64,000 nucleotides of DNA from Pararcticibacter amylolyticus. Lineage in GTDB: Bacteria; Bacteroidota; Bacteroidia; Sphingobacteriales; Sphingobacteriaceae. The notes below the pieces were generated by a model. It worked only from the letters and a program-made list of their open reading frames with translations. It did no database searches and was not told where the DNA came from. Every line of letters starts with the position of its first letter. Position 1 is the first letter of the stretch. A program made the translations under genes and the position numbers. Positions 6,279-44,006 of this stretch are shown here, piece by piece. The stretch spans positions 111,276 through 175,275 of the forward strand of contig NZ_QEAS01000001.1 in assembly GCF_003130405.1 (NCBI RefSeq), written 5' to 3'.

Positions 6279-8387
6279 ATGAAACACTATTTACTTGCAA
6301 CGTTGATCCTCTTTACCGCATTCCGCGGGTTCTCACAAGCTATCATATCCGGCACTATAAAGAATCAGAAAGGCCAGCCCATTAAACAGGCCAATATCAT
6401 ACTCAAAAACACGTATGACGGTGCCACTTCCGACAGCACCGGGAAATTCTTGTTCAGCACAGAAGAGAAAGGAGCGTTTATCTTACTCTACTCTGCAACC
6501 GGCTACCAGGACGATAGCGTGAAATTACAACTCGACGGCAAAGCGGTAAACCTCAGCGTTCTGATGAGGAAGAAAGTGAATGAACTCGACGCCGTTACGA
6601 TCACCGCCGGAACATTCGAAACCGGGGATAAAAAGCGGGGAACCATCCTGAGTTCGCTGGACGTTGCAACAACTGCCGGCTCCAATGCCGACATCATCAG
6701 TGCCCTGCAAACTCTGCCGGGAGCACAGACCTCCTTTACTGAAAGCGGGCTGTTTGTGAGAGGAGGATCAGCAGCGGAAACAAAAACGTTCTTTGATGGC
6801 ATGCTGATTAAGAATCCTTTTAACACCCAAGTGCCCGATCAGGCATCGAGGGGAAGATTCTCTCCTTTCCTGTTCAAAGGCACCTCTTTTTCTGCCGGCG
6901 GCTACTCCGCATTATACGGGCAGGCCCTCTCGTCTGCTCTGCTTCTTGAAAGCAAAGACCTGCCCGAGAAAACCACTACCGGACTTTCTTTACTGTCCGT
7001 TGGTGCCGGCGTAGATCAGAACATCCGCTTTAAGAACAGCGCGCTAACTACAGGTGGATTCTATTATAATCTGAAACCTGCCTTTTCAGTGATCAAACAA
7101 GACCGGGATTGGGATAAGGAGCCGGAACAGTACGGAGCAACGCTGCAGTACAAGCTAAAGACATCGGATACCGGCATGTTCAAATGGTATAGCGATTTCA
7201 GCAGAACATCCCTTGGGCTTAATGTGACTGATACAGAAAACCCTCAGGAGACAGACTATTTCAGTAATACCAACAAAAACACGTACATCAATACCTCCTA
7301 CCAGGACTACCTGGCAAAGAGCTGGAAGATCCAGGCAGGACTTGCGTTCAGCAATACCTCCGATGACGGTTTGCAAAAAGAAGACCGGTACAACCGGACG
7401 GACCGGGTTTTCCAGGGAAGACTGGTAGCAACACACTACCTTTCCTCTCTCTCAAATATCAAATTCGGAGCAGAAAGCTTTGCTTTTAAAAGAGCGGAAG
7501 AGATGAACCAGCTTTCCCGGCAGTACAAAGACCAGTTAACGGCGGCTTTTTCTGAAGCTGAAATATTCATCACACCTAACCTGGCAACAAGGGTTGGTTT
7601 AAGATCTGAATATTCTTCCTGGCTGGATGAGTATAACATCGCACCGAGGGCATCTGTGGGTTACAGGACAGGTTCGTTCAGCCAGGTCTCTCTCGCATAC
7701 GGCAAATTTTATCAGAATCCTGAAGATGATTACCTCATTATGCAGCCTCTGGATTTCGAAAAAGCAGATCATTACATTCTGAACTACCAGTACAGCAACT
7801 CTGATTATACCTTCCGTGCCGAAGCTTATTATAAAGATTATTCCAGGCTTACGAGGGATTTTGACGGACAGCTCAGTAATACCGGGAACGGCTATGCAAG
7901 AGGTGCTGAGTTGTTCTGGAGGGACAGGAAAAGTATCCGGAACGCCGATTACTGGATCTCTTATTCTTTTCTTGATACCAGGCGGATCTTCGGTACTTAC
8001 CCAAGCAGGGCAGTGCCTCCTTTTGCTGCCAAACATACCTTAAATGTGGTTTACAAGCAATTCTTTGAAAAGCTGAACTCGCAAATAAGCTCTACGTACA
8101 CGTTCGCTACCGGCAGAACATACGTTAATCCCGCAAATCCGGTTTACCTGGGGGATAAAACGGGCAACTTCAACAATCTCAGTCTCAATGTCAGCTATCT
8201 TACTCATATACTGAAACAATTTACAGTGGTGTACCTGTCGGCGACCAACGTTCCGGGATTCAACAATGTTTACGGCTATCACTATTCACGGGACGGTCAG
8301 TTCAGACAAGCCATCCAACCGGCCGCTCAACGCGACTTTTTCATCGGATTACTGATGACCATCGGCGACAACACCTTTGTACGTTAA
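6279..8387 (+). CDS. TonB-dependent receptor (carboxypeptidase-regulatory-like domain, plug and barrel)
   Basis: 702 aa with a signal peptide. It has an N-terminal CarboxypepD_reg-like segment (ISGTIKNQKGQPIKQANIIL) and plug-like motifs (DAVTITAG, FVRGG). The C-terminus ends in F-V-R. Confidence 0.7.
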   Translation: MKHYLLATLILFTAFRGFSQAIISGTIKNQKGQPIKQANIILKNTYDGATSDSTGKFLFSTEEKGAFILLYSATGYQDDSVKLQLDGKAVNLSVLMRKKVNELDAVTITAGTFETGDKKRGTILSSLDVATTAGSNADIISALQTLPGAQTSFTESGLFVRGGSAAETKTFFDGMLIKNPFNTQVPDQASRGRFSPFLFKGTSFSAGGYSALYGQALSSALLLESKDLPEKTTTGLSLLSVGAGVDQNIRFKNSALTTGGFYYNLKPAFSVIKQDRDWDKEPEQYGATLQYKLKTSDTGMFKWYSDFSRTSLGLNVTDTENPQETDYFSNTNKNTYINTSYQDYLAKSWKIQAGLAFSNTSDDGLQKEDRYNRTDRVFQGRLVATHYLSSLSNIKFGAESFAFKRAEEMNQLSRQYKDQLTAAFSEAEIFITPNLATRVGLRSEYSSWLDEYNIAPRASVGYRTGSFSQVSLAYGKFYQNPEDDYLIMQPLDFEKADHYILNYQYSNSDYTFRAEAYYKDYSRLTRDFDGQLSNTGNGYARGAELFWRDRKSIRNADYWISYSFLDTRRIFGTYPSRAVPPFAAKHTLNVVYKQFFEKLNSQISSTYTFATGRTYVNPANPVYLGDKTGNFNNLSLNVSYLTHILKQFTVVYLSATNVPGFNNVYGYHYSRDGQFRQAIQPAAQRDFFIGLLMTIGDNTFVR

Positions 8388-8398
8388 AAGCAATTTAC

Positions 8399-9061
8399 AT
8401 GAACCAAATAATTAAAAAGAACATGAAACTCATCCAACTCAACACCATCGTCCTGCTTCTCTTTGTATCGTTTACTTCGTTCGCACAGTCTGAAAAGTAC
8501 CAGCTGGCGATGGGCAAAGGCCTGCAACTGCTTCAGTCGGCAAAAAGCCCCGATGAGTTCGCCGCAGCCGCAAATCATTTTGAGAGGATTGCCAGGGCAG
8601 AAAACACACAATGGATGCCATCGTATTATGCCTCTTACTGTAATCTCATTGCAGGCATTACAGGAAAGAAGGAAAATATGGATCCTCTTCTCGACAAAGC
8701 GCTGGATCAGATTGCGAAAGCAGACTCGCTTTCCGCCGGGAACAGCGAGATCTATACAGTCAGGGGCTACATTGAGTTTATGAAAATGTCCATCGACCCT
8801 ATGAACAGGATGTCTTTCATGAAAAGCGCTGCCGCCTCCTTAGACAAAGCGATAGCTCTGAACCCCGAGAACCCCAGGCCTTACCTGGTGAAAGGACAAA
8901 ACATATTTTACACCCCTGCTGCATTCGGCGGAGGCAAAGAAGCTGCAAAACCACTCCTGGAAAAAGCAGCTACAAAATTCAGTACCTTTAAACCGGATAG
9001 CAGCATGGCTCCAAACTGGGGTAAAGAAAGAAATAACGAACTGCTTGCACAGTGCAAATAA
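8399..9061 (+). CDS. Hypothetical secreted protein or lipoprotein
   Basis: 220 aa with a signal peptide (LLLFVSFTSFAQS) and an alpha-helical, TPR-like composition. It is co-directional with and adjacent to the TonB receptor and the LytS-type kinase. Confidence 0.45.
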   Translation: MNQIIKKNMKLIQLNTIVLLLFVSFTSFAQSEKYQLAMGKGLQLLQSAKSPDEFAAAANHFERIARAENTQWMPSYYASYCNLIAGITGKKENMDPLLDKALDQIAKADSLSAGNSEIYTVRGYIEFMKMSIDPMNRMSFMKSAAASLDKAIALNPENPRPYLVKGQNIFYTPAAFGGGKEAAKPLLEKAATKFSTFKPDSSMAPNWGKERNNELLAQCK

Positions 9062-9076
9062 TATATTTTATAAGAA

Positions 9077-10141
9077 ATGCGTGAAAGAGGGGCTAAATAC
9101 ACCCATAAGGGCTGGCTCATAACCAATGTTAACAATCTGTTAGGGGGGATTGTAATTGGCGTCCTGATATCTCTTTTTATTTCTGCGCTGAGGGGGAAGC
9201 TTGTAGAGCCGAGAATGTTCTTTTCGACTATAATTTTTAGTGTAATGATCTCGCTCTGCGTGATGAACGCGATCCTGATTGCGCAGTCCCTCCTGAAGCT
9301 AAGGTATGACAGAATATCTTTCATCATCGTCTTTTATGTCGCCTGCCTGCTGGGTATGGCAGCAGGAACGGAACTGTCCTTCTTCATTCTTTCGTTCACA
9401 CACGGAGTCCCGTACTATTTCTTTCATCCCCAGGACATGCTCTTCAGTGCCCTGGTTGTGATCATTATCTGCACCATCAGGTTTGTTCATCATTCGCAAA
9501 GAGCCTCCCTGCAGAACCAGATCAAACAAAAGGAGCTGGACATGATGCGCCTGACCCAGCTTAAAACGCAGGCAGAGCTCGCAACTCTCCACGCCAGGAT
9601 CAACCCTCATTTCCTGTACAATGCTCTTAATTCAATAGCGAGCCTGATTCATCACGACCCCGATAAAGCGGAGTCCATGACACTCAAACTATCTAAGCTT
9701 TTCCGGTATAGTATCAACCATAACAGCGAAGATATGGTGCAGATCAGGGATGAGATGGAGACAGGAATTACGTACCTGGATATTGAGAAAATACGTTTCG
9801 GCGACAGGATAAACTTCAACCTGGATGTCGATGACGAGCTTATGAACGCCAGAATCCCCCGTTTTCTCATTCAGCCTCTCGTAGAAAACGCATTAAAACA
9901 TGGGTTAAAGAATACAGCAGAAAAGGGTGAGCTCACTATCCGGATCCGGCGGCAAGGTGAGTCTGTTGAGATCGCAGTTGCCGACAACGGCACGCCTTTT
10001 CCCGATGAACTGCAAACCGGGTACGGACTGCAGAGTACTTACGACAAGCTTTCACTGTTATATGGCGATAACTACCAGGTATCTATCACCAATGAGCCGG
10101 TAAAGCAGATTAAGATCCTGATTCCTCTCCGATATGAGTAA
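9077..10141 (+). CDS. LytS/YehU-family sensor histidine kinase (His_kinase PF06580 type)
   Basis: The N-terminus is multi-TM, followed by the HARINPHFLYNALNSIASLI motif and a C-terminal HATPase domain. It overlaps the downstream LytTR regulator by 8 bp. Confidence 0.8.
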   Translation: MRERGAKYTHKGWLITNVNNLLGGIVIGVLISLFISALRGKLVEPRMFFSTIIFSVMISLCVMNAILIAQSLLKLRYDRISFIIVFYVACLLGMAAGTELSFFILSFTHGVPYYFFHPQDMLFSALVVIIICTIRFVHHSQRASLQNQIKQKELDMMRLTQLKTQAELATLHARINPHFLYNALNSIASLIHHDPDKAESMTLKLSKLFRYSINHNSEDMVQIRDEMETGITYLDIEKIRFGDRINFNLDVDDELMNARIPRFLIQPLVENALKHGLKNTAEKGELTIRIRRQGESVEIAVADNGTPFPDELQTGYGLQSTYDKLSLLYGDNYQVSITNEPVKQIKILIPLRYE

Positions 10142-14337: not shown

Positions 14338-14353
14338 TGGCACCCCCATTGTC
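14338..14353 (+). promoter_or_regulatory. Candidate sigma-54 (-24/-12) promoter upstream of kdpFABC
   Basis: TGGCAC-cccca-TTGT matches the TGGCAC-N5-TTGCW consensus except that C becomes T in the -12 GC. A sigma-54-dependent activator is encoded at the end of the locus. Confidence 0.3.
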
Positions 14354-14379
14354 AACAGCTCTCTAAAAATGAAAAAACT

Positions 14380-14460
14380 ATGATATTCTTACTTCTTCCG
14401 GCTCTGCTTGCATGCATGTGGCTTTTTTTTAAAACTGTTGACTGGTTCGAAAAAATCTAA
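14380..14460 (+). CDS. Putative 26-aa hydrophobic peptide (MIFLLLPALLACMWLFFKTVDWFEKI) immediately upstream of kdpF
   Basis: The ATG opens a single TM-like helix and the stop codon lies 4 nt before the kdpF ATG. No homology could be assessed. It is the 3' part of a longer 75-aa ORF whose 5' part is low-complexity. Confidence 0.2.
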   Translation: MIFLLLPALLACMWLFFKTVDWFEKI

Positions 14461-14464
14461 AGTA

Positions 14465-14542
14465 ATGACAGCACTATTTATTATCGCAATCGCAGTATTT
14501 ATCTATATGGTCTATGTACTGCTCAGACCTGAAAAATTCTAA
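14465..14542 (+). CDS. kdpF: KdpF, small subunit of the K+-transporting ATPase
   Basis: A 25-aa single-TM peptide MTALFIIAIAVFIYMVYVLLRPEKF. The stop codon is 9 nt before the kdpA ATG, which fits the usual position and length of KdpF. Confidence 0.6.
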   Translation: MTALFIIAIAVFIYMVYVLLRPEKF

Positions 14543-14551
14543 AAAATCATC

Positions 14552-16270
14552 ATGAACACAGAACTACTTGGTATCGCCGCAACATTCCTGATCACACTGG
14601 TCATTGCGATACCTTTGGGAAAATACCTCGCGAAGGTATTTGCAGGAGAGAAAGTCTGGACAGACTTTCTCAGCCCGTTTGAAAATGGGATCTACAAGCT
14701 CTCGGGGATCAATCCACGTGAGCAGATGAACTGGAAGCAACACATGAAAGCGATGCTCACGATTAATTCGGTGTGGCTGATCTATGGCTTCTTTGTGCTA
14801 CTGTACCAGGATAAGCTTCCTTTGAACCCCGACGGCAATCCGGGCATGAGTGCCGATCTGTCGTTTAATACGATCATCAGCTTCGTCGTCAACTGCAACC
14901 TGCAGCACTATTCAGGAGAAACCGGGGTCAGCTACCTCACCCAGCATTTCGTCCTGATGTTCCTTCATTTCACCAGTGCAGCCACGGGTATTGCATCAGC
15001 CATTGTGGTGTTCAAAGCATTCAGGGACAAGACTGTTACTTCTCTCGGAAATTTCTGGGAATTCTTTGTACGCTCCATTACGCGCCTCTTGCTTCCTCTT
15101 TCAATAATCATCGCACTGATCCTTGCTTTTAGCGGGACGCCGGCTTCTTATAAAGGCAAAGACCAATATGTCTCTTTACAGGGAGATACCGTTAACGTAT
15201 CCAGGGGACCAGCTGCACAGATGATCGCCATAAAACATCTCGGAACAAACGGAGGAGGATGGTTTGGTGCAAATTCCGCGCATCCTCTTGAAAATCCCTC
15301 TTATCTGACAAACATGGTCGAAATGATCGCACAGGTGATCATACCCGTTGCAATGGTGATCGCCTTTGGTTACTTCATTCGCCGGAAAAAACTTGGCTGG
15401 ATCATCTTCGGGGTCATGACCGCAGGCCTGTTTTTGTTACTGATCCCAACTATCAGCAGTGAACTTTCGGGGAACCCGTCTATTGCGAAGATGGGCATCA
15501 GTCAGTCAACTGGCGCAATGGAAGGTAAGGAGGTGCGTTTCGGGCCAGCTGCTTCGGCTTACTGGAGTACAGTAACGACTATCATTTCCACCGGATCTGT
15601 AAACAGCATGCACGATAGCACCATGCCCCTTACCGGGTTATGGCAGATGCTTGCAATGATGATCAACTCTTTCTACGGCGGTTGCGGAGTTGGCGTCCTC
15701 AATTATCTGATCTACCTCATCATCGCTGTTTTCATTTCCGGATTAATGGTAGGCCGTACGCCGGAGTTCCTCGGGCATAAAGTAGAAGCCAGGGAAGTCA
15801 AAATTGCGGCGTTAATCACCCTGCTGAGCCCGCTGCTGATCATGGCAGGCACGGCACTCGCCTGCTTTGTTTATACAGACTATGGCCATGCTGACTGGGC
15901 TGTTAAACCGGCCAGCTGGCTCAATAATCCCGGGTTTCACGGATTCTCGGAAATGCTGTACGAAATGACCTCTTCCAACGCCAATAATGGCTCCGGCTTC
16001 GAAGGACTGGGAGATAATAACATTTTCTGGAACGTTTCGACAGGCTTTGTACTGATCCTCGGTCGTTTCCTGCCGATCATCGGGCCAGTAGCTATCGCCG
16101 GGCTCCTTGGCCAGAAAAAGTACATACCGGAGTCGGCAGGTACACTCCGCACTGATACCATAACCTTCGGAATAATGACCCTCGCGGTGATCCTTGTTCT
16201 GAATGCTCTATCTTATTTCCCTGCCCTGGCATTAGGCCCGCTGGCAGAATATTTTTCAATGCTTAAATAA
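14552..16270 (+). CDS. kdpA: Potassium-transporting ATPase subunit A (KdpA)
   Basis: 572 aa, polytopic. It carries KdpA selectivity-filter-like motifs (NTNGGG-like: [16 protein letters not shown]) and its gene order is followed by kdpB and kdpC. Confidence 0.9.
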
Positions 16271-16272
16271 AA

Positions 16273-18312
16273 ATGAAACAACAATCCAACAGGTTATTTG
16301 AGCCGGCACTCGTGAGTGCCGCACTGAAGCAATCATTCATAAAATTAGATCCGAGGCTCATGGTCAGAAACCCGGTGATGTTCACCGTGGAGATCGGCAC
16401 AGCCGTCATGCTATATATCAGCGTCTATTCTTTCGGCAACAGCGGACAAGGTTCTTTTGGCTACAACCTCACCATATTCCTGATTCTCCTGCTGACAGTA
16501 CTGTTTGCCAATTTTGCTGAAGCGATAGCCGAAGCTAGAGGAAAGGCACAGGCTGACAGCCTCCGCAAAACGAGGGAAGATACCCCTGCGAAAGTCATAA
16601 AGGCCGATGGTTCCGTAGAAACCCGTTCTTCCGCTACACTACGTAAAGGAGAAGTATTTTTCTGTGAGGCAGGAGATATCATCCCCACAGACGGCGAGAT
16701 TATCGAAGGCATTGCCACGATCGACGAATCGGCCATAACAGGAGAATCAGCCCCGGTGATCAGGGAATCGGGAGGAGATAAATCATCAGTAACGGGTGGA
16801 ACAAAAGTTCTGTCCGACAGGATCAAAGTTGAAGTAAGCTCCCAGCCGGGAGAAAGCTTTCTTGATAAAATGATCGCTCTGGTTGAAGGAGCCTCCAGGC
16901 AAAAAACGCCTAACGAAATTGCATTGACGATCCTTCTTGCCAGTTTTACGCTGATCTTTATCATCGTCTGCGTTACATTGAAACCGTTCGGCGATTATGC
17001 CAATACTCCTATTACGGTAGCTGCACTGATCTCCCTGTTTGTATGTCTCATTCCAACCACTATCGGCGGACTTCTTTCTGCAATAGGAATCGCTGGAATG
17101 GACCGGGCGCTCAGGGCAAACGTCATCACAAAATCGGGCAAAGCAGTAGAAACTGCCGGTGATATCGATACCCTCCTGCTCGACAAAACGGGCACCATTA
17201 CCATCGGAAACCGCAAGGCTACACACTTTTATTCTTTACCCGGCGTAACTGAAGAGCATTTTGTTAAAAGCAGCCTCCTGGCTTCATTGTCCGATGAAAC
17301 CCCCGAAGGGAAATCGATCGTCGAACTGGCCCGGCAGACTCTTCGTCCGGGTGCGTTCAATTTGCCGGAAAGCTCTTCCATGACGTTTGTAAAGTTTACT
17401 GCGGAAACCCGTTCCAGCGGCGTGGACCTCAGTGATGGCACCCGGATAAGAAAAGGAGCAGCCGATGCGATCCGGAATATTGCATTAAACTCCGGGAATG
17501 AGTTCAGTGAAGATATAGCGAAGGAAGTGACCAGGATCTCATCGAACGGGGGAACTCCGCTGGTGGTTTCGGAAAACGGGAAGCCGCTGGGAGTCATTGA
17601 GCTCCAAGACATTATCAAGCCGGGAATCCAGGAACGTTTTGAAAGGCTTCGCCGGATGGGCGTTAAAACGGTGATGGTAACCGGCGACAACCCTCTCACA
17701 GCAAAATACATCGCCGAAAAGGCGGGTGTCGACGACTTTATTGCCGAGGCAAAGCCTGAAGATAAAATGAACTATATCAAACACGAACAGGCCCAGGGAA
17801 AACTGGTGGCGATGATGGGAGACGGAACAAATGATGCTCCGGCCCTCGCCCAGGCCGATGTCGGGGTAGCGATGAACAGCGGTACACAAGCCGCCAAAGA
17901 GGCGGGAAACATGGTAGACCTGGACAATGACCCTACGAAACTTATTGAAATTGTTGAGATCGGCAAGCAACTGCTGATTACACGGGGCACGCTGACAACC
18001 TTCTCCATTGCCAATGACGTCGCCAAGTATTTTGCAATTGTTCCGGCACTGTTCATCGCTTCCATCCCGGCGCTTCAGGGACTGAACATCATGGCACTCC
18101 ACAGTCCCGAGAGCGCTATTCTTTCAGCCGTGATCTTCAATGCTATTATTATACCGATCCTGATCCCGCTGGCGCTGAAGGGCGTGGCTTACAAACCCCT
18201 GGGTGCATCCGCCCTCCTTCGCCGGAACCTCCTGCTTTATGGCATCGGAGGGGTAATTGTCCCTTTTATCGGGATCAAGATGATTGACTATCTCGTTGCA
18301 CTTTTTATTTGA
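16273..18312 (+). CDS. kdpB: Potassium-transporting P-type ATPase subunit B (KdpB)
   Basis: 679 aa with the P-type ATPase motifs DKTGTIT (phosphorylation site), TGDN and [10 protein letters not shown]. Confidence 0.9.
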
Positions 18313-18887
18313 TTCATAAAATGAAAAAGTATTTTTTTCAGTCGCTAAGACTCACTCTGATCATGCTGGTATTACTCTGCGTGATCTATCCCCTCGTTGT
18401 CGCTTTCATAGCCCGCTTTTCGGAAGGCAAAGGTGACGGTGCCGCAATCCTTGAAAACGGAAAGAAGATCGGGTATGCTAACATCGGACAGTCGTTTACC
18501 AGGCCGGAATATTTCTGGGGAAGGCCCTCGTCAGTTGGATATAACGCTGCAGGATCAGCAGGGTCCAATAAAGGCCCGTCTAATGCAGACTACCTGAAGG
18601 AGGTAAACAACCGGATCGACAGCTTGCTGAAATATAATCCCGGGTTGAAGAAGAATGAAATCCCTGCTGATATGGTGACAGCCTCCGGCAGCGGTCTTGA
18701 TCCCGACATATCGGTAGCAGGGGCGAGAATTCAGATCTCCAGGGTAGCAAAAGCCCGCGGCATCAGTGCCGAACAACTTGAAGAACTCGTAGATCAGGCA
18801 ACAACACCTCCCTTCCTCAACCTGTTCGGCCCCTCAAGAGTAAACGTTCTTAAGTTAAATCGTTCCCTTGACAACCTTTCAAGGTAA
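18309..18887 (+). CDS. kdpC: Potassium-transporting ATPase subunit C (KdpC)
   Basis: About 190 aa with a single N-terminal TM segment and the conserved ASGSGLDP KdpC motif. It overlaps the kdpB stop by 4 bp. The start may be the Met at 18321. Confidence 0.85.
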
Positions 18888-18912
18888 TTTCTGCTACAAG
18901 CAAATCATTCAA

Positions 18913-19980
18913 ATGAAAAAAGCTCTTATATTTTGCGCTGCTTTAGGAGCAGCCTGTACCTCTTATTCCCAGGAAAACCCGTTGAAAATCTCGGGTTACC
19001 TGGAGACCTACTACGGCTACGACTTTAATAAACCGTCGGATAATAACCGTCCCGGATTTGTATATTCGCATAACAGGCATAACGAAGTGAACCTCAATCT
19101 GGGTTTTGTAAAAGCGGCGTTCGATAATGGAAATATGCGGGCGAACCTTGCCCTGATGGCAGGTACCTACAGCAACGCAAATCTTGCAGCAGAACCAGGA
19201 GTGTTTAAGAATATCTTTGAAGCGAATGCGGGGATAAAACTTTCCGGGAATGCAAACTTCTGGCTTGATGCGGGGATCTTTTCATCGCATATCGGTTTTG
19301 AAAGCGCCGTTTCGAAAGACTGCTGGGTGTTAACCAGGAATATATCCTCAGAAAATACCCCTTATTATGAATCAGGGGCGAAGCTCTCCTATAGCACAAA
19401 TAACGGACAGTTTTCTGCTGCTGTTTTGTTCCTTAACGGATGGCAGCGGATGAACAGGCAGGATGGGAACAGCCAGGCTGCGGGAGGACTGCAACTCACC
19501 TGGAAACCCTCCTCAAGTCTCACTTTTAACTACAGCAATTATCTTGGTTCAGAAGGTGCCGACTCCGTCAGGGTAAAGAGGTTCTACCATAACTTCTATG
19601 GCATTGTACAAATGACGGAGGATCTGGGATTAACAGCTGGCCTGGATTACGGAATGCAGCAAAGCACGAAGGGAAGCAGCCACTATCAGCATGTGGTCTC
19701 ACCGGTGGCTATTGTCAGGTACCGGATGGCAGAAAAGTGGGCCGTGGCCGGCAGATTTGAATACTACCGGGACAAGGATGGTGCGATCATTTCTACAGGA
19801 ACACCCTCAGGCTTTGATACAAAAGGCTATTCATTGAACGTAGATTACGCGCCATTTCCAAACGCCCTTTTCAGAATGGAAGGCAAGGTATATGACAGTA
19901 AAGACAAGTTATTTATAAGAGACGGTAATCCTGTGAACTACAATGCTGCCATAACAGGAAGTATCGCAGTAGCATTTTAG
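18913..19980 (+). CDS. Outer-membrane porin embedded in the kdp locus
   Basis: A signal peptide (MKKALIFCAALGAA) and beta-strand-rich sequence with alternating hydrophobic residues, ending in a C-terminal F. Its position between kdpC and kdpD matches the arrangement reported for Bacteroidetes kdp clusters. The supplied ORF starts 45 nt earlier, inside kdpC. Confidence 0.6.
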   Translation: MKKALIFCAALGAACTSYSQENPLKISGYLETYYGYDFNKPSDNNRPGFVYSHNRHNEVNLNLGFVKAAFDNGNMRANLALMAGTYSNANLAAEPGVFKNIFEANAGIKLSGNANFWLDAGIFSSHIGFESAVSKDCWVLTRNISSENTPYYESGAKLSYSTNNGQFSAAVLFLNGWQRMNRQDGNSQAAGGLQLTWKPSSSLTFNYSNYLGSEGADSVRVKRFYHNFYGIVQMTEDLGLTAGLDYGMQQSTKGSSHYQHVVSPVAIVRYRMAEKWAVAGRFEYYRDKDGAIISTGTPSGFDTKGYSLNVDYAPFPNALFRMEGKVYDSKDKLFIRDGNPVNYNAAITGSIAVAF

Positions 19981-19986
19981 AATCTG

Positions 19987-21114
19987 ATGGATCAAAGCAG
20001 GGACGATTCGGTACGGCAATTCCTTGAGCTTGTTAAAAGATCAAGGCGGGGAAAATTTAAGATCTACATTGGCATGAGCGCCGGCGTCGGTAAAACATAC
20101 CGGATGCTACAGGAGGCTCATGCCCTGCTGCGTAACGGCATCGATGTCAGGATCGGTTACATTGAGACCCACGGAAGAGCCGAAACTCATGCTCTCCTGG
20201 AAGGCCTTCCCCTGATCCCGCGGCGGGCCATCTTTTACAAAGGCAAAGAACTGGAAGAAATGGACCTTTCGTCTATTCTCAGCAGGCACCCGGAAGTGGT
20301 GATTGTCGATGAACTCGCTCATACGAATGTCGAAGGGAGTAAAAATGCGAAGAGATGGCAGGACGTAACCGATATACTGGAAGCCGGGATCAATGTGATC
20401 TCTGCACTTAATATCCAACATATCGAAAGCCTGAACGGGGAAGCGGAGGAAATAACCGGCGTTAAGATCTCTGAGCGGGTTCCCGACCGCGTGCTGGAAA
20501 TGGCAGACGAGATCGTGAATATTGATCTCACTGCCGATGAGCTGATCGGGCGCCTCCGGGAAGGTAAAATTTATGACAGCAGCAAAATCAGGCAGGCTCT
20601 CAGCAACTTTTTTCAATCAGACAAGATCCTTCAGCTCCGCGAGCTGGCATTGAGGGAAGTTGCTCATCACCTTGAGAAAAAAATTGATACAGAGATCCCA
20701 AAGCAGATAAAACTAAGGCCAGAACGCTTCATGGCTTGCATATCATCCAACCAGGAGATTGCCAGGACCGTTATCCGCAAAACAGCAAGGCTTGCTTCTT
20801 ATTACCGCTCACCGTGGATCGTTCTTTATGTCCAGGCAGACAGCGAAAGCGGGCAGCGGATCCGGCTGGACAAGCAGCGGCATCTGATCAATAATTTCAA
20901 GCTGGCTACAGAACTGGGCGCTGAAGTAGTGAAGATCAAAAGCAATGAGATCACCCGCACCATTATGACGGAGGCAGAAAAACGCGAGGTAACCACCATT
21001 TGTATCGGAAGGCCGCATCTTAACCTGCTCCAGGTAATACTGCGGACAGCTATCTTTAGCCAGCTTTTAAGAAAGATCGCTGTTACGGACACCGATTTAA
21101 TTATATTATCATAA
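19987..21114 (+). CDS. kdpD: KdpD sensor-domain protein (KdpD N-terminal domain plus Usp domain) lacking TM and kinase portions
   Basis: A Walker-A GMSAGVGKT near the N-terminus and a KdpD N-domain signature, followed by a universal-stress-protein-like domain. It is 375 aa with no histidine-kinase core. Confidence 0.8.
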   Translation: MDQSRDDSVRQFLELVKRSRRGKFKIYIGMSAGVGKTYRMLQEAHALLRNGIDVRIGYIETHGRAETHALLEGLPLIPRRAIFYKGKELEEMDLSSILSRHPEVVIVDELAHTNVEGSKNAKRWQDVTDILEAGINVISALNIQHIESLNGEAEEITGVKISERVPDRVLEMADEIVNIDLTADELIGRLREGKIYDSSKIRQALSNFFQSDKILQLRELALREVAHHLEKKIDTEIPKQIKLRPERFMACISSNQEIARTVIRKTARLASYYRSPWIVLYVQADSESGQRIRLDKQRHLINNFKLATELGAEVVKIKSNEITRTIMTEAEKREVTTICIGRPHLNLLQVILRTAIFSQLLRKIAVTDTDLIILS

Positions 21115-21120
21115 AAGACA

Positions 21121-22878
21121 ATGAAAATAAAAACCAAGCTGAGACTGGGATTTGGCTTTCTGTTTGTCATTATCATGGCATTCGGTGCGATGGGCATTTA
21201 CTATATCAACCGGATATCTGAAAGCTCGAAAGTGATCCTGAAAGATAACTACGAAACACTCCGGTATACCCGTGCAATGGAGGAGATCCTGAATGAGCAC
21301 AACGTTCCTCTTAAGGGCGGAGCATTAAAAACATTTAACAGCAACTTCCTTTCTGAGTCCCGCAATGTCACCGAAGAAGGAGAAAGCGAAGAAGTGCTGG
21401 CACTTAAGGAGCAGGTTAAGATCCTTAACAGCAGCACAACCTCTGCCACCGGACGGGACGCTGCTCTGCGGCGGGTAAGAAAACATCTTCTGAATATTGA
21501 AGACCTTAACATGCAGGCTATAGTGAGGAAGAACAATGCCGCACAGGAGTCGGTTAATAAAGCCGCTGCTTACCTGGGGTTAATAGGCTCGTTCACGTTC
21601 CTGATACTATTTACCTTTGTTGTCAATTTTCCCGGCTATGTTGCAAATCCGATCAGGGAGCTCTCTGAAGGCATCAGGCAGATCAGCCGCAGGAACTACA
21701 AACAAAGGCTGCATTTCAAAACAAATGATGAGTTCGCCGAACTTGCTGCTTCATTCAACGAAATGGCCTCGCGTCTTGATGAGTGGGAAAACAGCAGCCT
21801 GGCAACGATCAGGTCTGAAAAACTACGTATAGAGGCAATCATAGAAAACATGCACGACCCGATCATAGGCCTGAACGAGAAAGCAGAAGTGCTTTTCATT
21901 AATAAAGCGGCGGAAAACATCCTGAACCTCGATCAGCAAAAAACAACAGGTCAGGTAGCTACGGAAATAGCCGCCGGGAATGACCTGCTAAGGACCATCC
22001 TCGATAAAAACGCGAACGACAGGTTACTTAAGATCTTTGCCAACGGAAAAGAATCATTCTTCAGCATGGAAAGCCGCGAGATAGAGGTACCGGCCTACCC
22101 GGCGGGAGATACGGAAAGAGCATTCCAGGTAACTTCTGTCCCGGCGGGAACTGTGTATATTTTACGGAATATCACAGAATTTAAGGAGCGGGATGAAGCT
22201 AAGACCAACTTCATAGCAACTATATCACATGAGCTTAAAACACCCATCTCATCCATCAAGATGAGCCTGAAGCTCCTTAAAGACCAGCGTGTGGGAAATT
22301 TAAACGGGGAGCAGGATGAGCTGATCTCGCATATTAAAGATGATACTGACCGGTTACTAAAGATCACCACCGAGCTTCTTGACCTCTCGCAAGTTGAAAC
22401 AGGGAACATCCAACTGAACCTCAAGCGTACACATCCCCTTGAAATCGTGAACTATGCCATAGAGGCAATGCGCTTTCAGTCCGAACAGAAAGGCGTGCAG
22501 CTTGAGCTCATCAGCAGGCACCACCTTCCGGATATCAATATAGACACTGAAAAAACTGCGTGGGTACTCATCAACTTCCTTTCGAATGCACTCCGTTACA
22601 GCAGCGAAAAGTCAAAGATCATTATCCAGTTGAACCAGGTGAACGGTGAGATTGAGTTTTCGGTAAAAGATTTCGGAAAGGGAATTGAAGATCAATACAT
22701 TCAGCGACTCTTCGACCGTTATTTCCAGATTCCTGCAGATGGGCAAAATAAGTCGGGATCGGGCCTGGGGCTGGCAATCTCTAAAGAGTTCATAGAGGCC
22801 CAAAACGGCAGGATATGGGTAGAAAGCGCATTGGGAGAGGGCAGTAAATTCAGTTTTGCTATTCCTGCAGCCGGCTGA
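21121..22878 (+). CDS. Sensor histidine kinase (two TM segments, HAMP, PAS-like, HisKA, HATPase), the likely kinase half of a split KdpD
   Basis: TM1 and TM2 flank a periplasmic loop. There is a HAMP-like segment, an H-box ISHELKTPISSI and C-terminal N/G1/G2 boxes (GSGLGLAISKEFIEAQNGRIWVES). Confidence 0.8.
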   Translation: MKIKTKLRLGFGFLFVIIMAFGAMGIYYINRISESSKVILKDNYETLRYTRAMEEILNEHNVPLKGGALKTFNSNFLSESRNVTEEGESEEVLALKEQVKILNSSTTSATGRDAALRRVRKHLLNIEDLNMQAIVRKNNAAQESVNKAAAYLGLIGSFTFLILFTFVVNFPGYVANPIRELSEGIRQISRRNYKQRLHFKTNDEFAELAASFNEMASRLDEWENSSLATIRSEKLRIEAIIENMHDPIIGLNEKAEVLFINKAAENILNLDQQKTTGQVATEIAAGNDLLRTILDKNANDRLLKIFANGKESFFSMESREIEVPAYPAGDTERAFQVTSVPAGTVYILRNITEFKERDEAKTNFIATISHELKTPISSIKMSLKLLKDQRVGNLNGEQDELISHIKDDTDRLLKITTELLDLSQVETGNIQLNLKRTHPLEIVNYAIEAMRFQSEQKGVQLELISRHHLPDINIDTEKTAWVLINFLSNALRYSSEKSKIIIQLNQVNGEIEFSVKDFGKGIEDQYIQRLFDRYFQIPADGQNKSGSGLGLAISKEFIEAQNGRIWVESALGEGSKFSFAIPAAG

Positions 22879-22880
22879 CA

Positions 22881-24221
22881 CTACTTCGCTGCAGGGATCT
22901 TATATTCTTCCATCTTCCGGTATAAGGTGGTGAGCCCTATCCCAAGAAGCCTGGCAGTCTCCGTTTTATTCCCACCGGTATGGCTCAGTACCTTCATAAT
23001 ATGCTGCTTTTCCATGGTTTGCATATCAAAAACAGGCCCGTCGGGCAATGAGGCATTAAAACCTGCAGGAAGGAGATCTGCCGTAGCTACCGGCTCATCT
23101 GCAAGAATCGCGACACGTTCCATCACATTTTTCAGTTCGCGTATATTTCCTTTCCAGGGATGTGTGTTCAATGCCCGGATAAATCCGGAGTCCATCGAAA
23201 AGGGCGGCTTATTCATCTTCTCAGCAAAATCATCCAGGTAATATCCTGCGAGTATTCCGATATCTTCCCTCCTTTCCGAAAGAGATGGCAGGGCTATTGT
23301 AAAGACCGACAGCCTGTAAAAAAGGTCTTCTCTGAAATTCCCTTTCTCAGCCTCTCTCTGCAGGTCGAGGTTAGTCGCCGCAATAATTCTCACATCAACC
23401 GTAGTTGGCTTTGTGTCTCCTACTTTGATGAAGCTTTGACTTTCCAGTACACGAAGCAGCCTCGCCTGCAGGGATAGATTCATCTCTCCTATTTCATCCA
23501 GAAAGATTGTTCCGTTATTTGCTTCTTCAAGGAGCCCCTTCTTATCTTTCAGCGCCCCTGTGAAAGCGCCTGCTTTATATCCAAAAAGTTCACTTTCGAG
23601 CAATTCGCTGCTAAAGCCGCTGCAATTTACAGCAATAAAGGCTTTTTCTGCCCGGGGACTTCCATAATGAATGGCATTGGCAAACACTTCCTTACCCGTT
23701 CCCGTTTCGCCCTGCAGCAAAACTGTCGTATTAGTTTTAGACACCCTTAATGACAGTTCAACCGCCTTTTTTATAGCAGCCGACCGGCCGATTACCTGAT
23801 CGAATCCATATTTCCTTTTGGTTTTGTCGCGGGGGAAGGCTTTATTGCCTCCCAGGCGTACCTTCTCCATTGCCTTAGCCACAAGCGGGATGATCTTATC
23901 ATTATCATCTCCCTTGGTGATATAGTCGAAGGCCCCCCTTTTGATAGCAGAAACGCCGTCTTCGATGCTGCCAAACGCCGTGAGGTTTATCACTTCAACA
24001 AATGGCTTGCTTTGCTTTATTAAGCGGACAAGTTCTATCCCGTTGATGTCGGGCAGTTTCACATCACTGAGAACAACGTCGACGTCCTCCTGGTTGAGTA
24101 TCCTCAGACCGTCTTTTGCTGTATACGCCTGTAAAAGACGGTAGCCTTCCAGCTCAAGGATCCGGGAAAGAAGTCCGGCCAGTTTCTTTTCGTCATCTAT
24201 CACCAGTATCGTGCCTTCCAT
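22881..24221 (-). CDS. Sigma-54-dependent Fis-family response regulator (NtrC-like)
   Basis: A receiver (MEGTILVIDDE ... D), an AAA+ sigma-54 activation domain (GETGTGKE, GAFTGA-like) and a C-terminal Fis HTH. Its stop is 3 bp from the stop of the convergent kinase. The start was chosen at MEGTIL (24221) rather than the longer ORF. Confidence 0.85.
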   Translation of the reverse strand: MEGTILVIDDEKKLAGLLSRILELEGYRLLQAYTAKDGLRILNQEDVDVVLSDVKLPDINGIELVRLIKQSKPFVEVINLTAFGSIEDGVSAIKRGAFDYITKGDDNDKIIPLVAKAMEKVRLGGNKAFPRDKTKRKYGFDQVIGRSAAIKKAVELSLRVSKTNTTVLLQGETGTGKEVFANAIHYGSPRAEKAFIAVNCSGFSSELLESELFGYKAGAFTGALKDKKGLLEEANNGTIFLDEIGEMNLSLQARLLRVLESQSFIKVGDTKPTTVDVRIIAATNLDLQREAEKGNFREDLFYRLSVFTIALPSLSERREDIGILAGYYLDDFAEKMNKPPFSMDSGFIRALNTHPWKGNIRELKNVMERVAILADEPVATADLLPAGFNASLPDGPVFDMQTMEKQHIMKVLSHTGGNKTETARLLGIGLTTLYRKMEEYKIPAAK

Positions 24222-24331
24222 AAACAATATTATTTTGTAAATTAACGAATTAAAAAGATCAGGGTGCAAATTAAAGAAAGCTGTATCTTTTTTTCCCGGC
24301 CAACGTATAAGGGTAAATCTAATTAACGCAT

Positions 24332-25576
24332 ATGATTGTAAATAGTGGGGCACTTACTCAGCAGCCAAACGCCTGCATTTCTGTTTGTGGTATACCTCAA
24401 AAGCCGGATCATCATCAAAAAGCGGATCTAAGCGGACAATTAAAAGAATTTTTTACTCATATATTTAATACCGACAGCTGGCCTGCCAGATGGCATTGCG
24501 GAATCTGGAGCGACTTTCATGGCTGGCTGTATATTCTGTCGGACTTCGCTATCTGGGCTGCATATTTTGCTATTCCATTCCTTCTCTACCGTATTATCAG
24601 CAAGAGGAAAGACCTTCCCTTTCCAAAAATGCTGTGGTTGTTTAGTGCATTTATCTTCCTTTGCGGGACAAGCCACTTCCTTGATGCGGTGATCTTCTGG
24701 TGGCCGGCTTACAGGCTGAGTGCACTTGTCCGCTTTGCCACGGCAGCGGTATCAATCAGCACCGTTTTCGCCCTGTATAAAGCACTTCCAATGATTTTTA
24801 ACCTGAGAACAGTAGACCAGCTTGAAGCTGAAATCTGCGAGCGAAAAAAAGCAGAAGAAGAGACCCGTCATCTCCAGATACATAAAAAAGCGGCTGAAGA
24901 TCTCATGGCTAAAAAAGATGAGTTTATCAGCATTGCCAGCCACGAACTAAAAACACCGGTTACCAGTGTAAAAGCATGCCTGCAGTTATTGGAAAGAGCT
25001 GCCCTTAAGGAGCAGAGCCTGAAAGACCTGTCGCCATTTGTAACTAAGGCCGTCAGACAGATAGACAAACTCTCTCATATTGTCAACGACCTTCTGGATG
25101 TATCGCGGATACAATCGGGACAGCTGGAACTATACAAGACCAGTTTTAACCTGATGGAAATGATAAAAGACTGTGCTGACCAATTCAGAATCATGGACAG
25201 CAGACACTCCATCAGAATAGACGGAGATCCGCATCTGACCGTTCTTGCAGACAGGAGCCGGCTGGACCAGGTAATATGCAACCTGCTTACCAATGCGTTC
25301 AAATATTCACCAGGGAATAAACTGGTAATCATTTCTCTTAAGCCTTCGGAAAATGACACAGTAAAGATTGAGATAACCGACCATGGGATTGGCATTCCGG
25401 AGGAAAAATCCAAACAGATCTTCGACCGCTTCTACCGTGTGGAAGATACGTCCCAGTATTTCCAGGGCGTGGGCCTAGGTCTGTATATTGCATCTCAGAT
25501 AGTAAAACAGCACGGCGGCACGATAGGGGTAAACAGTACTCCGGGTAAAGGCTCAACATTCTGGTTCACCATCTGA
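24332..25576 (+). CDS. Histidine kinase with an N-terminal ethylene-binding-domain-like (ETR1-type) 3-TM sensor, then coiled-coil, HisKA and HATPase
   Basis: Residues around 60-160 align by eye to the Arabidopsis ETR1 transmembrane ethylene-binding domain. ILSDFAIWAAYFAIPF matches ISDFFIALAYFSIPL, PFPKMLWLFSAFIFLCGTSHFLDAVIFW matches [28 protein letters not shown], and there is a third helix. The Cu(I)-ligand Cys and His (CGxxH, coding 24662..24676) and the Asp, Tyr and Ile-Pro positions are conserved. There is no GAF domain. The H-box is ISIASHELKTPVTSV. Confidence 0.8.
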   Translation: MIVNSGALTQQPNACISVCGIPQKPDHHQKADLSGQLKEFFTHIFNTDSWPARWHCGIWSDFHGWLYILSDFAIWAAYFAIPFLLYRIISKRKDLPFPKMLWLFSAFIFLCGTSHFLDAVIFWWPAYRLSALVRFATAAVSISTVFALYKALPMIFNLRTVDQLEAEICERKKAEEETRHLQIHKKAAEDLMAKKDEFISIASHELKTPVTSVKACLQLLERAALKEQSLKDLSPFVTKAVRQIDKLSHIVNDLLDVSRIQSGQLELYKTSFNLMEMIKDCADQFRIMDSRHSIRIDGDPHLTVLADRSRLDQVICNLLTNAFKYSPGNKLVIISLKPSENDTVKIEITDHGIGIPEEKSKQIFDRFYRVEDTSQYFQGVGLGLYIASQIVKQHGGTIGVNSTPGKGSTFWFTI

Positions 25577-42624: not shown

Positions 42625-43788
42625 TTAACCTGCAATTTTCAAATCTTTTGGCAGAACACCATGATACAGTTCAGAGAGTCTTGCAACAGTATAGTCAATT
42701 TCGTCTTCCGTATTATACTTCCCGAAAGAAAAGCGGATAGCGGTACGTTCAAAATCATAATGCAGCGCTTTCAGCACATGGGAACCATGACCCGAATGAG
42801 CGGTACAGGCACTCCCCCCGGATGCACATATATTGTAACTGTCCAGGTAAGACAGCGCAGATGACATTGCCGGTAAAGGAGGCAAAGAAACGCTCAATAC
42901 GGTATAAATGCTATCTTCAGGATCAGCAGAGTTCCCGTTGAATGCCACCCCGCTTATTTCTTCCCTGATCTTTGATATCATTCTCTTTTTTAAGACAGCA
43001 ATCCTTTTCCTGTCGCCTTCCAGATCGCGGTAAGCAATTTCCAGGGCGCTTGCCAGTCCCACAATTCCTGCTACATTCTCAGTGCCAGCCCGTCTGCCAT
43101 TTTCCTGGCTTCCCCCTTTTATCAGGGTCAAAAGCCTGGTCCTTTCACCGGCATACAAAAAGCCAACACCTTTAGGCCCGTTAAACTTATGTGCCGACCC
43201 CGTTATGAAGTCAACAGGAAGAGTTTTTAAGTCAAATTCATAATGCCCCATAGTCTGAACCGTATCAGTATGAAACAAGGCATCGTATTTCCTGCATATT
43301 TCACCGATTCGCTCAATGTCGTGGAGGTTGCCAATCTCGTTATTTCCATGCATAACCGACACAAAAGCACGGCTGTTAAACGCGAGAATGCTCTCAAGGT
43401 GCTTTAAAGAAACAGTGCCCCGCTCATCATGCATCAGATACACAAGCTCTATTTCTCCATTCTTCTCAAGTGCCTTTAGTGTATTCAAGACTGCGTGATG
43501 CTCGAAAGGCGTTGTTATAGCCAGGCGTATCCCGGAAGCCCGGATAGCAGAATAAATAGCGATATTATCGGCTTCCGTTCCTCCTGAAGTAAAAAGGATT
43601 TGAGATGGTTCTGCGTTTAGAAGCCCGGCGATGGTCGCACGTGCTTTTTCCACAGCCTTTCGCGCCTCCCGCCCGGGCCCGTGTGCAGATGAAGGATTGG
43701 CAAAGCCTTCAAAGAAGTAAGGCCCCATAGCAGCGAAGACCTCCCTGTCGAGAGGGGTAGTGGCAGCATTGTCTAAATAAATCTTCAT
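42625..43788 (-). CDS. Cysteine desulfurase (class V aminotransferase, NifS/IscS-like)
   Basis: A PLP-binding SGSAHKFNGPKGVG lysine motif and the catalytic loop SGGSACT. Confidence 0.85.
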   Translation of the reverse strand: MKIYLDNAATTPLDREVFAAMGPYFFEGFANPSSAHGPGREARKAVEKARATIAGLLNAEPSQILFTSGGTEADNIAIYSAIRASGIRLAITTPFEHHAVLNTLKALEKNGEIELVYLMHDERGTVSLKHLESILAFNSRAFVSVMHGNNEIGNLHDIERIGEICRKYDALFHTDTVQTMGHYEFDLKTLPVDFITGSAHKFNGPKGVGFLYAGERTRLLTLIKGGSQENGRRAGTENVAGIVGLASALEIAYRDLEGDRKRIAVLKKRMISKIREEISGVAFNGNSADPEDSIYTVLSVSLPPLPAMSSALSYLDSYNICASGGSACTAHSGHGSHVLKALHYDFERTAIRFSFGKYNTEDEIDYTVARLSELYHGVLPKDLKIAG

Positions 43789-44006
43789 AATAAGTTTAAT
43801 TTTAACGTTAAGCTTATTCAGATCGAAAGAGAAAGATTTGCGTTTGACAGAGCAGACATGCGAACTGTCTGAATCGTATCAACTTATCTTTTCCGCCTTA
43901 GCGGACAGGAATTAGCACCTTGTACTGGTACAGGTTGCTAAGACTTCACAGGGCCTATCCCTCCGTCTTTCTGGATAAGTGTAAAAGAACACACTGCAAA
44001 TATAAT

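Follow-up and report, generated by a model that had tools for sequence, protein, structure and literature searches.

The stretch analysed here comprises 64,000 nucleotides of the genome of Pararcticibacter amylolyticus (contig NZ_QEAS01000001.1, positions 111,276 to 175,275; hereafter the window) and carries a complete gene for a sensor histidine kinase whose membrane domain resembles that of the plant ethylene receptor ETR1. In the list of open reading frames (ORFs), this gene lies at 24332..25576 on the plus strand, starts with ATG and encodes 414 amino acids (aa) plus a stop codon. The same gene was called independently on a near-identical public contig (L001). Since homologues of 410-416 aa align with the kinase from residue 1, its ATG start is supported. 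Furthermore, its sensor domain is 100% identical to that of a metagenome-assembled genome of Pararcticibacter sp. (Sphingobacteriaceae; locus L002). All parts of the gene are read from the plus strand. The protein begins with an N-terminal tail (residues 1-62, 24332..24517) that is predicted to be periplasmic and carries C15, C19 and a motif before the first transmembrane (TM) helix, TM1. It continues with the ethylene-binding domain, ETR1_N (PF25487), at residues 63-157 (24518..24802), which was delimited by Pfam, hhalign and an AlphaFold2 model. A cytoplasmic linker helix, seen in the same model, leads from TM3 to the dimerisation and phosphotransfer domain (residues 161-189, 24812..24898). 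The latter, HisKA or DHp, spans residues 195-263 (24914..25120; Pfam E=2.1e-15) and is followed by HATPase_c at residues 307-414 (25250..25573; Pfam E=8.2e-30). A Pfam scan of the whole kinase detected only ETR1_N, HisKA and HATPase_c above noise. GAF, PAS and receiver domains were not found, and the linker between TM3 and DHp thus contains neither PAS nor GAF. In an NCBIfam scan, the generic kinase core was the sole part recognised.

This kinase core appears complete. The phospho-acceptor H204 is part of the motif SHELKTP (codon 24941..24943) and is invariant among homologues of the kinase. The N box (N317, N321), the G1 box (D350-H-G-I-G), the F box (F364) and the G2 box (G379-V-G-L-G) are intact, and their columns are invariant among the homologues as well. 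In addition, the core aligns with kinases of solved structure, e.g. 4i5s (E=3e-36). With all catalytic motifs present, it should be catalytically active.

The relationship of the sensor to ethylene receptors was found by three methods. The Pfam family ETR1_N, described as "Ethylene receptor 1-like, N-terminal domain", matches with 111.6 bits (cut-off 27; E=2.3e-32) and covers profile positions 2-96 of 97. BLASTP against residues 1-141 of Arabidopsis ETR1 gave E=1e-12 and 32% identity across 125 residues. The numbering of the ETR1 query reproduces published positions. In a database search, the query matched plant proteins that bear the name "ethylene receptor" (79-91% identity), each of them with PF25487. 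Finally, hhalign was employed to compare a profile of 11 Bacteroidota domains with a profile of 17 database fragments of plant receptors. The alignment of the two profiles spans 96 columns at a probability of 99.0% (E=4.6e-18) and keeps the register of the BLASTP alignment. A chance similarity of hydrophobic helices, or a mere membrane anchor, was considered as well, since short hydrophobic stretches may in general produce spurious alignments; no evidence in its favour was found. It is ruled out by the Pfam score, which lies 84 bits above the cut-off, by the hhalign and BLASTP E-values given above and by polar and functional residues that are invariant across thousands of homologues.

The same alignments allow the putative ligand site to be compared residue by residue. 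In helix 1, D71, Y78 and I81-P82 (24542..24577, +) correspond to ETR1 D25, Y32 and I35-P36 in the BLASTP alignment. In helix 2, the copper-site motif LCGTSHF (residues 110-116, 24659..24679, +) is the counterpart of LCGATHL in ETR1, with C111 and H115 in the places of C65 and H69, and directly upstream of this motif I108 aligns with I62 (24653..24655, +). In helix 3, BLASTP and hhalign both pair the signalling residues R134 and S141 (24731..24754, +) with ETR1 K91 and S98. Tyr32 is said, in work by Wang et al. from 2006, to be needed for ethylene binding by ETR1. Further ethylene-binding residues of ETR1 are C65, H69, I35, P36 and I62 (PMC6586836), and D25 is required for ethylene binding too (PMC10266040). 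All seven binding residues are present in the kinase and are 98-100% conserved among 79 Bacteroidota homologues: D71 and Y78 each in 78/79, I81 and P82 each in 79/79. Across 150 diverse representatives of clusters, their conservation reaches 97% or more, and only the D25 position falls below this value, with 93%. C111 and H115 are invariant in the 79 loci and the 150 representatives, and S141 is found in 79/79 homologues. By its sequence, the kinase clearly belongs to the ethylene-binding-domain family, and its predicted ligand site is complete. The original prediction, which was made from the DNA letters of this gene, had described a histidine kinase with an ETR1-type domain of three TM helices that passes straight into HisKA and HATPase, with neither a GAF nor a fused receiver domain. 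This description is borne out by Pfam and hhalign, which place residues 63-157 in the ethylene-binding family, and by the Pfam layout of the remaining protein. The Cys/His pair and the helix-1 Asp, Tyr and Ile-Pro that it had called conserved survive both the BLASTP alignment and the conservation check over 79 homologues.

The AlphaFold2 model covers residues 1-190 with a mean predicted local distance difference test score (pLDDT) of 75. It comprises three TM helices at 62-91, 98-120 and 128-156, followed by an unbroken helix at 161-189. Across the TM helices, the mean pLDDT of 10-residue blocks is 77-92, except for 62 in block 121-130, and the values for 161-189 are 89-94, with residues 1-29 and 54-57 below 50. 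From the positive-inside rule we infer the topology of ETR1, with the N-terminus outside and the kinase inside, based on the basic loop SKRKD between TM1 and TM2 and the odd number of helices. A phmmer search of residues 37-170 against PDB sequences gave nothing at E<=10, and Foldseek found no match of the model to PDB structures below E=0.4.

The segment ahead of TM1 is conserved in its own right. Directly before TM1 and outside the Pfam ETR1_N model lies the motif W50-P-x-R53-W54-H-C56-G-x-W59...H63-G-W (24479..24526). Within the 79 loci and the 150 representatives, R53, W54 and C56 show little or no variation, and the conservation of H63 is 95-100%. Among the 79 homologues C56 is invariant, and C19 occurs in 67/79 and C15 in 54/79; these latter two cysteines (24374..24388) are group-specific. 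Proteobacterial domains carry an analogous motif, PHGYCFLW...H, before TM1, and cyanobacterial receptors reportedly possess a single cysteine at this place, which may replace the plant disulfide pair (PMC6682694). Because of this proteobacterial analogue and the single cyanobacterial cysteine, a Cys-containing segment ahead of TM1 is a general bacterial feature of ethylene-binding domains. C15/C19 and the pre-TM1 motif could serve disulfide dimerisation or form a second metal site.

Plant receptors respond to other olefins and to carbon monoxide (CO) at much higher doses. One might speculate that the homology of the kinase to the ETR1 sensor is genuine, but that it responds to something else than ethylene in Bacteroidota, such as the availability of membrane Cu(I), the redox state, or another small copper-binding ligand like a different alkene, CO or an isocyanide. 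The response of the plant receptors to further ligands fits this idea, as do the strictly conserved R53-W54-x-C56 and H63 outside the Pfam model, the extra Cys pair C15/C19 and the presence of Arg instead of Lys91 in the majority of the subfamily. At this position, R is found in 76/79 and K in 3/79 Bacteroidota homologues, and among the 150 representatives R is found in 81 and K in 51. R134 is a conservative basic replacement for ETR1 K91, the helix-3 residue that pairs with Asp25, and the K91R variant of ETR1 keeps 63% of ethylene binding, with sensitivity lowered in planta (PMC10266040). Against a change of ligand speaks that strong purifying selection has preserved the entire seven-residue ethylene site and that every assayed homologue with these seven residues bound ethylene, two bacterial ones included (PMC11819568, PMC6682694). 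In addition, the single Cys before TM1 is general among bacterial domains, ethylene binders included (PMC6682694). A ligand other than ethylene consequently seems quite unlikely to us.

Ethylene sensing by the kinase is credible and makes it a good candidate, by homology to three validated receptors, namely Arabidopsis ETR1, SynEtr1 and AzoEtr1. For these three, saturable ethylene binding of high affinity that requires Cu(I) and the Cys/His pair has been shown. Saturable binding of 14C-ethylene was demonstrated for bacterial members that keep the seven residues, namely SynEtr1 (PMC6682694) and AzoEtr1 (PMC11819568). For the window kinase itself we infer copper loading, ethylene as the ligand, the direction of the response, the topology and the identity of the partner. 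In the mechanism that we propose, each monomer of a dimeric kinase in the inner membrane would bind a single Cu(I) through C111 and H115 in helix 2, with D71 of helix 1 orienting the copper-site histidine. Ethylene dissolved in the membrane, or a closely related small pi-ligand, would bind to the copper. A polar contact between D71 and R134 might relay the resulting change to helix 3 and from there via the linker helix 161-189 into the DHp domain. The result would be a changed autophosphorylation of H204 and a changed phosphotransfer to a response regulator. Because all kinase motifs are intact, signalling is expected to proceed by phosphotransfer, as in SynEtr1 and AzoEtr1, and not in the CTR1-type manner of plants.

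The kinase is no rarity, since its family is already catalogued and comprises thousands of bacterial proteins. PF25487 is already part of the precomputed annotation of each of the best 120 full-length homologues, which stem from Arcticibacter, Mucilaginibacter, Pedobacter and Daejeonella. A pattern scan with one genome per species revealed the subtype of the window kinase in at least 303 loci, i.e. species-level genomes, from genera and groups including Mucilaginibacter, Pedobacter, Dyadobacter, Hufsiella, Chitinophagaceae and Flavobacteriales. With the domain alone as query, phmmer found 7,480 matches at E<=1e-3 and 4,633 at E<=1e-10 among 1.84 billion cluster representatives. All 76 sampled representatives contained ETR1_N, 55 contained HATPase_c, about 43 PAS, eight a fused receiver and only two GAF. 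Published surveys likewise report putative ethylene receptors in several bacterial phyla, one of them based on 1,221 eukaryotic and prokaryotic domains (PMC11819568, PMC10266040). Two claims of the original prediction need correction in this light. It had confined characterised ethylene-binding kinases to plants and a few cyanobacteria, which does not agree with a curated Pfam family of thousands of bacterial members or with ethylene binding by AzoEtr1 (PMC11819568). It had also remarked on the absence of GAF; with GAF in 2/76 and PAS in about 43/76 bacterial representatives, lacking GAF is normal for bacterial members.

Among the 79 loci in Bacteroidota, two layouts were found. Proteins of the first, to which the window kinase belongs (50-66% identity), measure about 414 aa, and their sensor passes straight into HisKA. 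In the second, a protein of about 535 aa contains PAS in addition (e.g. loci L027, L030, L043, L049 and L062). Stand-alone receivers of about 135 aa make up 38/76 downstream neighbours and often overlap the stop codon of the kinase, for example in L027, where a PAS kinase at 7902..9503 is followed by an overlapping receiver at 9496..9900. The 38 receivers are found with the PAS class and with a short class that is more distantly related; the kinases measure roughly 400-687 aa, mostly about 535 aa. The kinases beside them share at most 40% tblastn identity with the window kinase or give no full-length match. Around true orthologues of the window kinase, the genes on either side are heterogeneous, and 3/75 upstream genes encode a receiver. 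Conserved neighbours for copper handling or ethylene metabolism were looked for among these up- and downstream genes and none was found. Because the neighbours are heterogeneous and receivers are few, the window kinase is best described as an orphan kinase that lacks a conserved adjacent regulator. The gene for its response regulator probably lies elsewhere in the genome.

In the window, the kinase gene is nevertheless accompanied by a regulator. A sigma-54-dependent response regulator with receiver, Sigma54_activat (AAA+) and HTH_8 domains according to Pfam (22881..24221, -) is transcribed divergently from it, and the intergenic region between both genes measures 110 bp (24222..24331). On its other side lies the kdp locus (14338..22878, +), which was delimited by Pfam and a promoter pattern scan. 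Here the original prediction was accurate, as ORF coordinates and Pfam reproduce the divergent sigma-54 regulator, the 110 bp gap and the adjacent kdp genes. Within the locus, a sigma-54-type -24/-12 match, TGGCACCCCCATTGT (14338..14352, +), precedes a kdpF-like ORF of 25 aa (14465..14542, +), followed by kdpA, kdpB, kdpC, a gene for a BBP2 porin, a gene for a KdpD N-terminal domain protein and a gene for a HAMP-PAS histidine kinase. The sigma-54 regulator is located downstream of this last gene and convergent with it. KdpD is thus split into a separate N-terminal protein and a 4HB/HAMP/PAS histidine kinase, and the BBP2 porin gene is embedded in the locus. Between the sigma-54-type site and the kdpF-like ORF, a small hydrophobic ORF was observed at 14381..14461 (+), MIFLLLPALLACMWLFFKTVDWFEKI. 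It could encode a leader or membrane peptide, or nothing.

The regulator most likely serves the kdp potassium-uptake operon, to judge from its orthologues and from the promoter scan. In Mucilaginibacter mali and two metagenome contigs (L083, L084, L085), orthologues of 67-74% identity directly precede kdpF/kdpA and are read in the same direction. The pattern TGGCAC-N5-TTGC was scanned over the 64 kb with up to two mismatches. Its matches are not above chance in the window (46 found versus 53 expected), and the lone site with one mismatch is 14338..14352 (+), just upstream of the kdpF-like ORF. The proximity of its orthologues to kdpF/kdpA and this best sigma-54-type site upstream of kdpF are the reasons for regarding the protein as a kdp regulator. 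The pattern scan found no sigma-54-type match in the region 24222..24331, nor upstream of the Porph_ging and OMP genes. A scan for sigma-70-type promoters and terminators around the kinase gave no match in 24222..24331 either, with a consensus that does not cover Bacteroidota promoters.

The original prediction had left open whether this regulator is the partner of the kinase or an unrelated neighbour. The second part of this statement stands as the more likely one, given its probable role as kdp regulator, whereas a partnership is disfavoured by its kdp-linked orthologues. If the two proteins formed a cognate pair, ethylene or copper would control sigma-54-dependent genes, perhaps kdp, and two kinases would act on one regulator. 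Their divergent arrangement with a gap of only 110 bp is compatible with such a pairing. Moreover, Arcticibacter sp. MXS-1 (L003) and a near-identical metagenome contig (L086) retain the divergent pair, with a glycosyltransferase in the place of kdp and no kdp genes adjacent to the regulator. However, synteny with the window extends to the flanks of L003 and L086 (PAP2, Porph_ging, OMP, TPR), and the kept adjacency may simply reflect close relatedness. The specificity residues in the DHp domains of the two kinases of the window resemble each other without being the same throughout (T/S, S/S, A/M, C/S and L/L at H+7, +8, +11, +12 and +15) and are not decisive. Against a cognate pair speaks that tblastn over 81 loci found the sigma-54 regulator beside the kinase only in the two Pararcticibacter copies and Arcticibacter; none of the roughly 75 homologous kinase genes in other genera adjoins a sigma-54 regulator, and the adjacency is thus not conserved beyond close relatives. 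In addition, the kdp locus has its own kinase and KdpD N-terminal protein, the regulator orthologues lie directly upstream of kdpF/kdpA and the best sigma-54-type site of the 64 kb is the one upstream of kdpF. A separate clade of regulator paralogues linked to ethylene-binding-domain kinases was tried as an explanation and rejected, as the pairwise identities are star-like (65-75%) and kdp-linked and kinase-linked regulators are not separated. Taken together, we hold a cognate pair to be unlikely. Even less is to be said for a scenario in which the Pararcticibacter/Arcticibacter lineage recruited the ethylene-binding kinase as a second input to the sigma-54 regulator driving the kdp pump, which we deem very improbable. 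If it were true, ethylene from plants or soil would tune high-affinity potassium uptake or other sigma-54-dependent genes in a rhizosphere member of the Bacteroidota. A plant hormone would then be wired directly into bacterial ion homeostasis, with two kinases converging on one enhancer-binding protein. As a side observation, the Arcticibacter-type loci carry a gene for a TMEM175-family potassium channel (L003 3262..3864, L086 4292..4870) on the upstream side of the regulator/kinase pair, separated from it by a few genes, in the region where the window has kdp.

Overall, we favour, with some reservation, the reading that the gene encodes an ETR1-type sensor histidine kinase which is a candidate ethylene sensor acting by phosphotransfer, with its partner probably encoded elsewhere and the neighbouring regulator most likely devoted to kdp. 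Several points weigh against it. The exchange of Lys91 for Arg, prevailing in Bacteroidota, is one that lowers ethylene sensitivity in Arabidopsis (PMC10266040). The C56/H63 segment is conserved yet poorly modelled, and the metal site could differ from that of ETR1. Sequence and fold searches of the PDB yielded no solved structure against which the geometry of the ethylene-binding domain might be checked. Full-text literature searches, whose coverage excludes key earlier surveys, found neither a paper on a Bacteroidota member nor such a member with demonstrated ethylene binding. Finally, the pair being kept without adjacent kdp in L003 and L086 lends a functional link between kinase and regulator some possibility, albeit a doubtful one.

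Besides the genes discussed above, the window contains further genes typical of Bacteroidota, such as SusC/SusD pairs and a type IX secretion cargo protein. A SAM riboswitch (RF00162, 89.6 bits, E=5e-20) was detected at 43881..43981 (-), directly upstream of an ORF of the class-V aminotransferase family (42625..43788, -). An ORF of 733 aa at 46648..48849 (-) gave no Pfam match at E<=1e-5. Furthermore, a surface protein of 1250 aa (53166..56918, +) comprises YDG, MBG_2, Big_2 and cadherin-like repeats and a CHU_C type IX secretion signal.

Ethylene is a major gas signal of plants and soil, and Mucilaginibacter, Pedobacter and Dyadobacter are abundant in rhizospheres. To our knowledge, only two bacterial ethylene receptors have been characterised, SynEtr1 from a cyanobacterium and AzoEtr1 from an alphaproteobacterium. 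Our results show that Bacteroidota such as these widely carry ethylene-binding-domain kinases with a complete predicted site, in two layouts: a minimal fusion and a PAS form that is accompanied by a receiver. The minimal form is attractive for biochemistry, as one helix joins the sensor to the DHp domain and the coupling of ligand and kinase could be measured directly. It may also be a simpler object for a first experimental structure of an ethylene-binding domain. The present analysis extends a known system to another phylum instead of describing a new class, and it corrects the likely assignment of the neighbouring regulator.

Among known systems, the window kinase may be compared first with AzoEtr1 of Azospirillum brasilense. 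Both have an N-terminal domain of three TM helices, the seven binding residues and a canonical histidine kinase with no fused receiver; both presumably act by phosphotransfer, and their hosts are associated with soil and plants (PMC11819568). However, AzoEtr1 contains PAS between sensor and kinase and has a response-regulator gene immediately downstream (PMC11819568), and the window kinase joins its sensor directly to HisKA and lacks a conserved adjacent regulator. In addition, AzoEtr1 is alphaproteobacterial and experimentally validated, in both of which the window kinase differs. SynEtr1 of Synechocystis sp. PCC 6803 (slr1212/UirS/PixA) resembles the window kinase in its single conserved Cys ahead of TM1, the counterpart of C56. 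In contrast to the window kinase, which lacks a second sensor, it possesses PAS and a cyanobacteriochrome GAF photosensor between sensor and kinase and is a light receptor as well.

Arabidopsis ETR1 and ERS1 belong to the same family of three TM helices, with the identity of 32% across 125 residues given above and with the Cys/His ligands, Asp25, Tyr32, Ile35-Pro36, Ile62 and Ser98 in common. They share a histidine-kinase domain as well, and N-terminal cysteines might be available for disulfide-linked dimers. The plant receptors differ by their GAF domain, by the fused receiver of ETR1, by their location in the endoplasmic reticulum membrane and by signalling mainly through CTR1/EIN2 and not by phosphotransfer, while the window kinase differs by Arg in place of Lys91, by its N-terminal tail of 62 residues and by the extra conserved motif. 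The PAS-containing class of Bacteroidota, as found in Dyadobacter and Mucilaginibacter (L027, L043, L062), has sensors that are 61-73% identical to that of the window kinase and carry the same N-terminal motif. These proteins nevertheless measure about 535 aa and contain PAS. Downstream of each lies a gene that encodes only a receiver of about 135 aa, and its start codon often overlaps the stop codon of the kinase gene, a layout that comes close to that of AzoEtr1.

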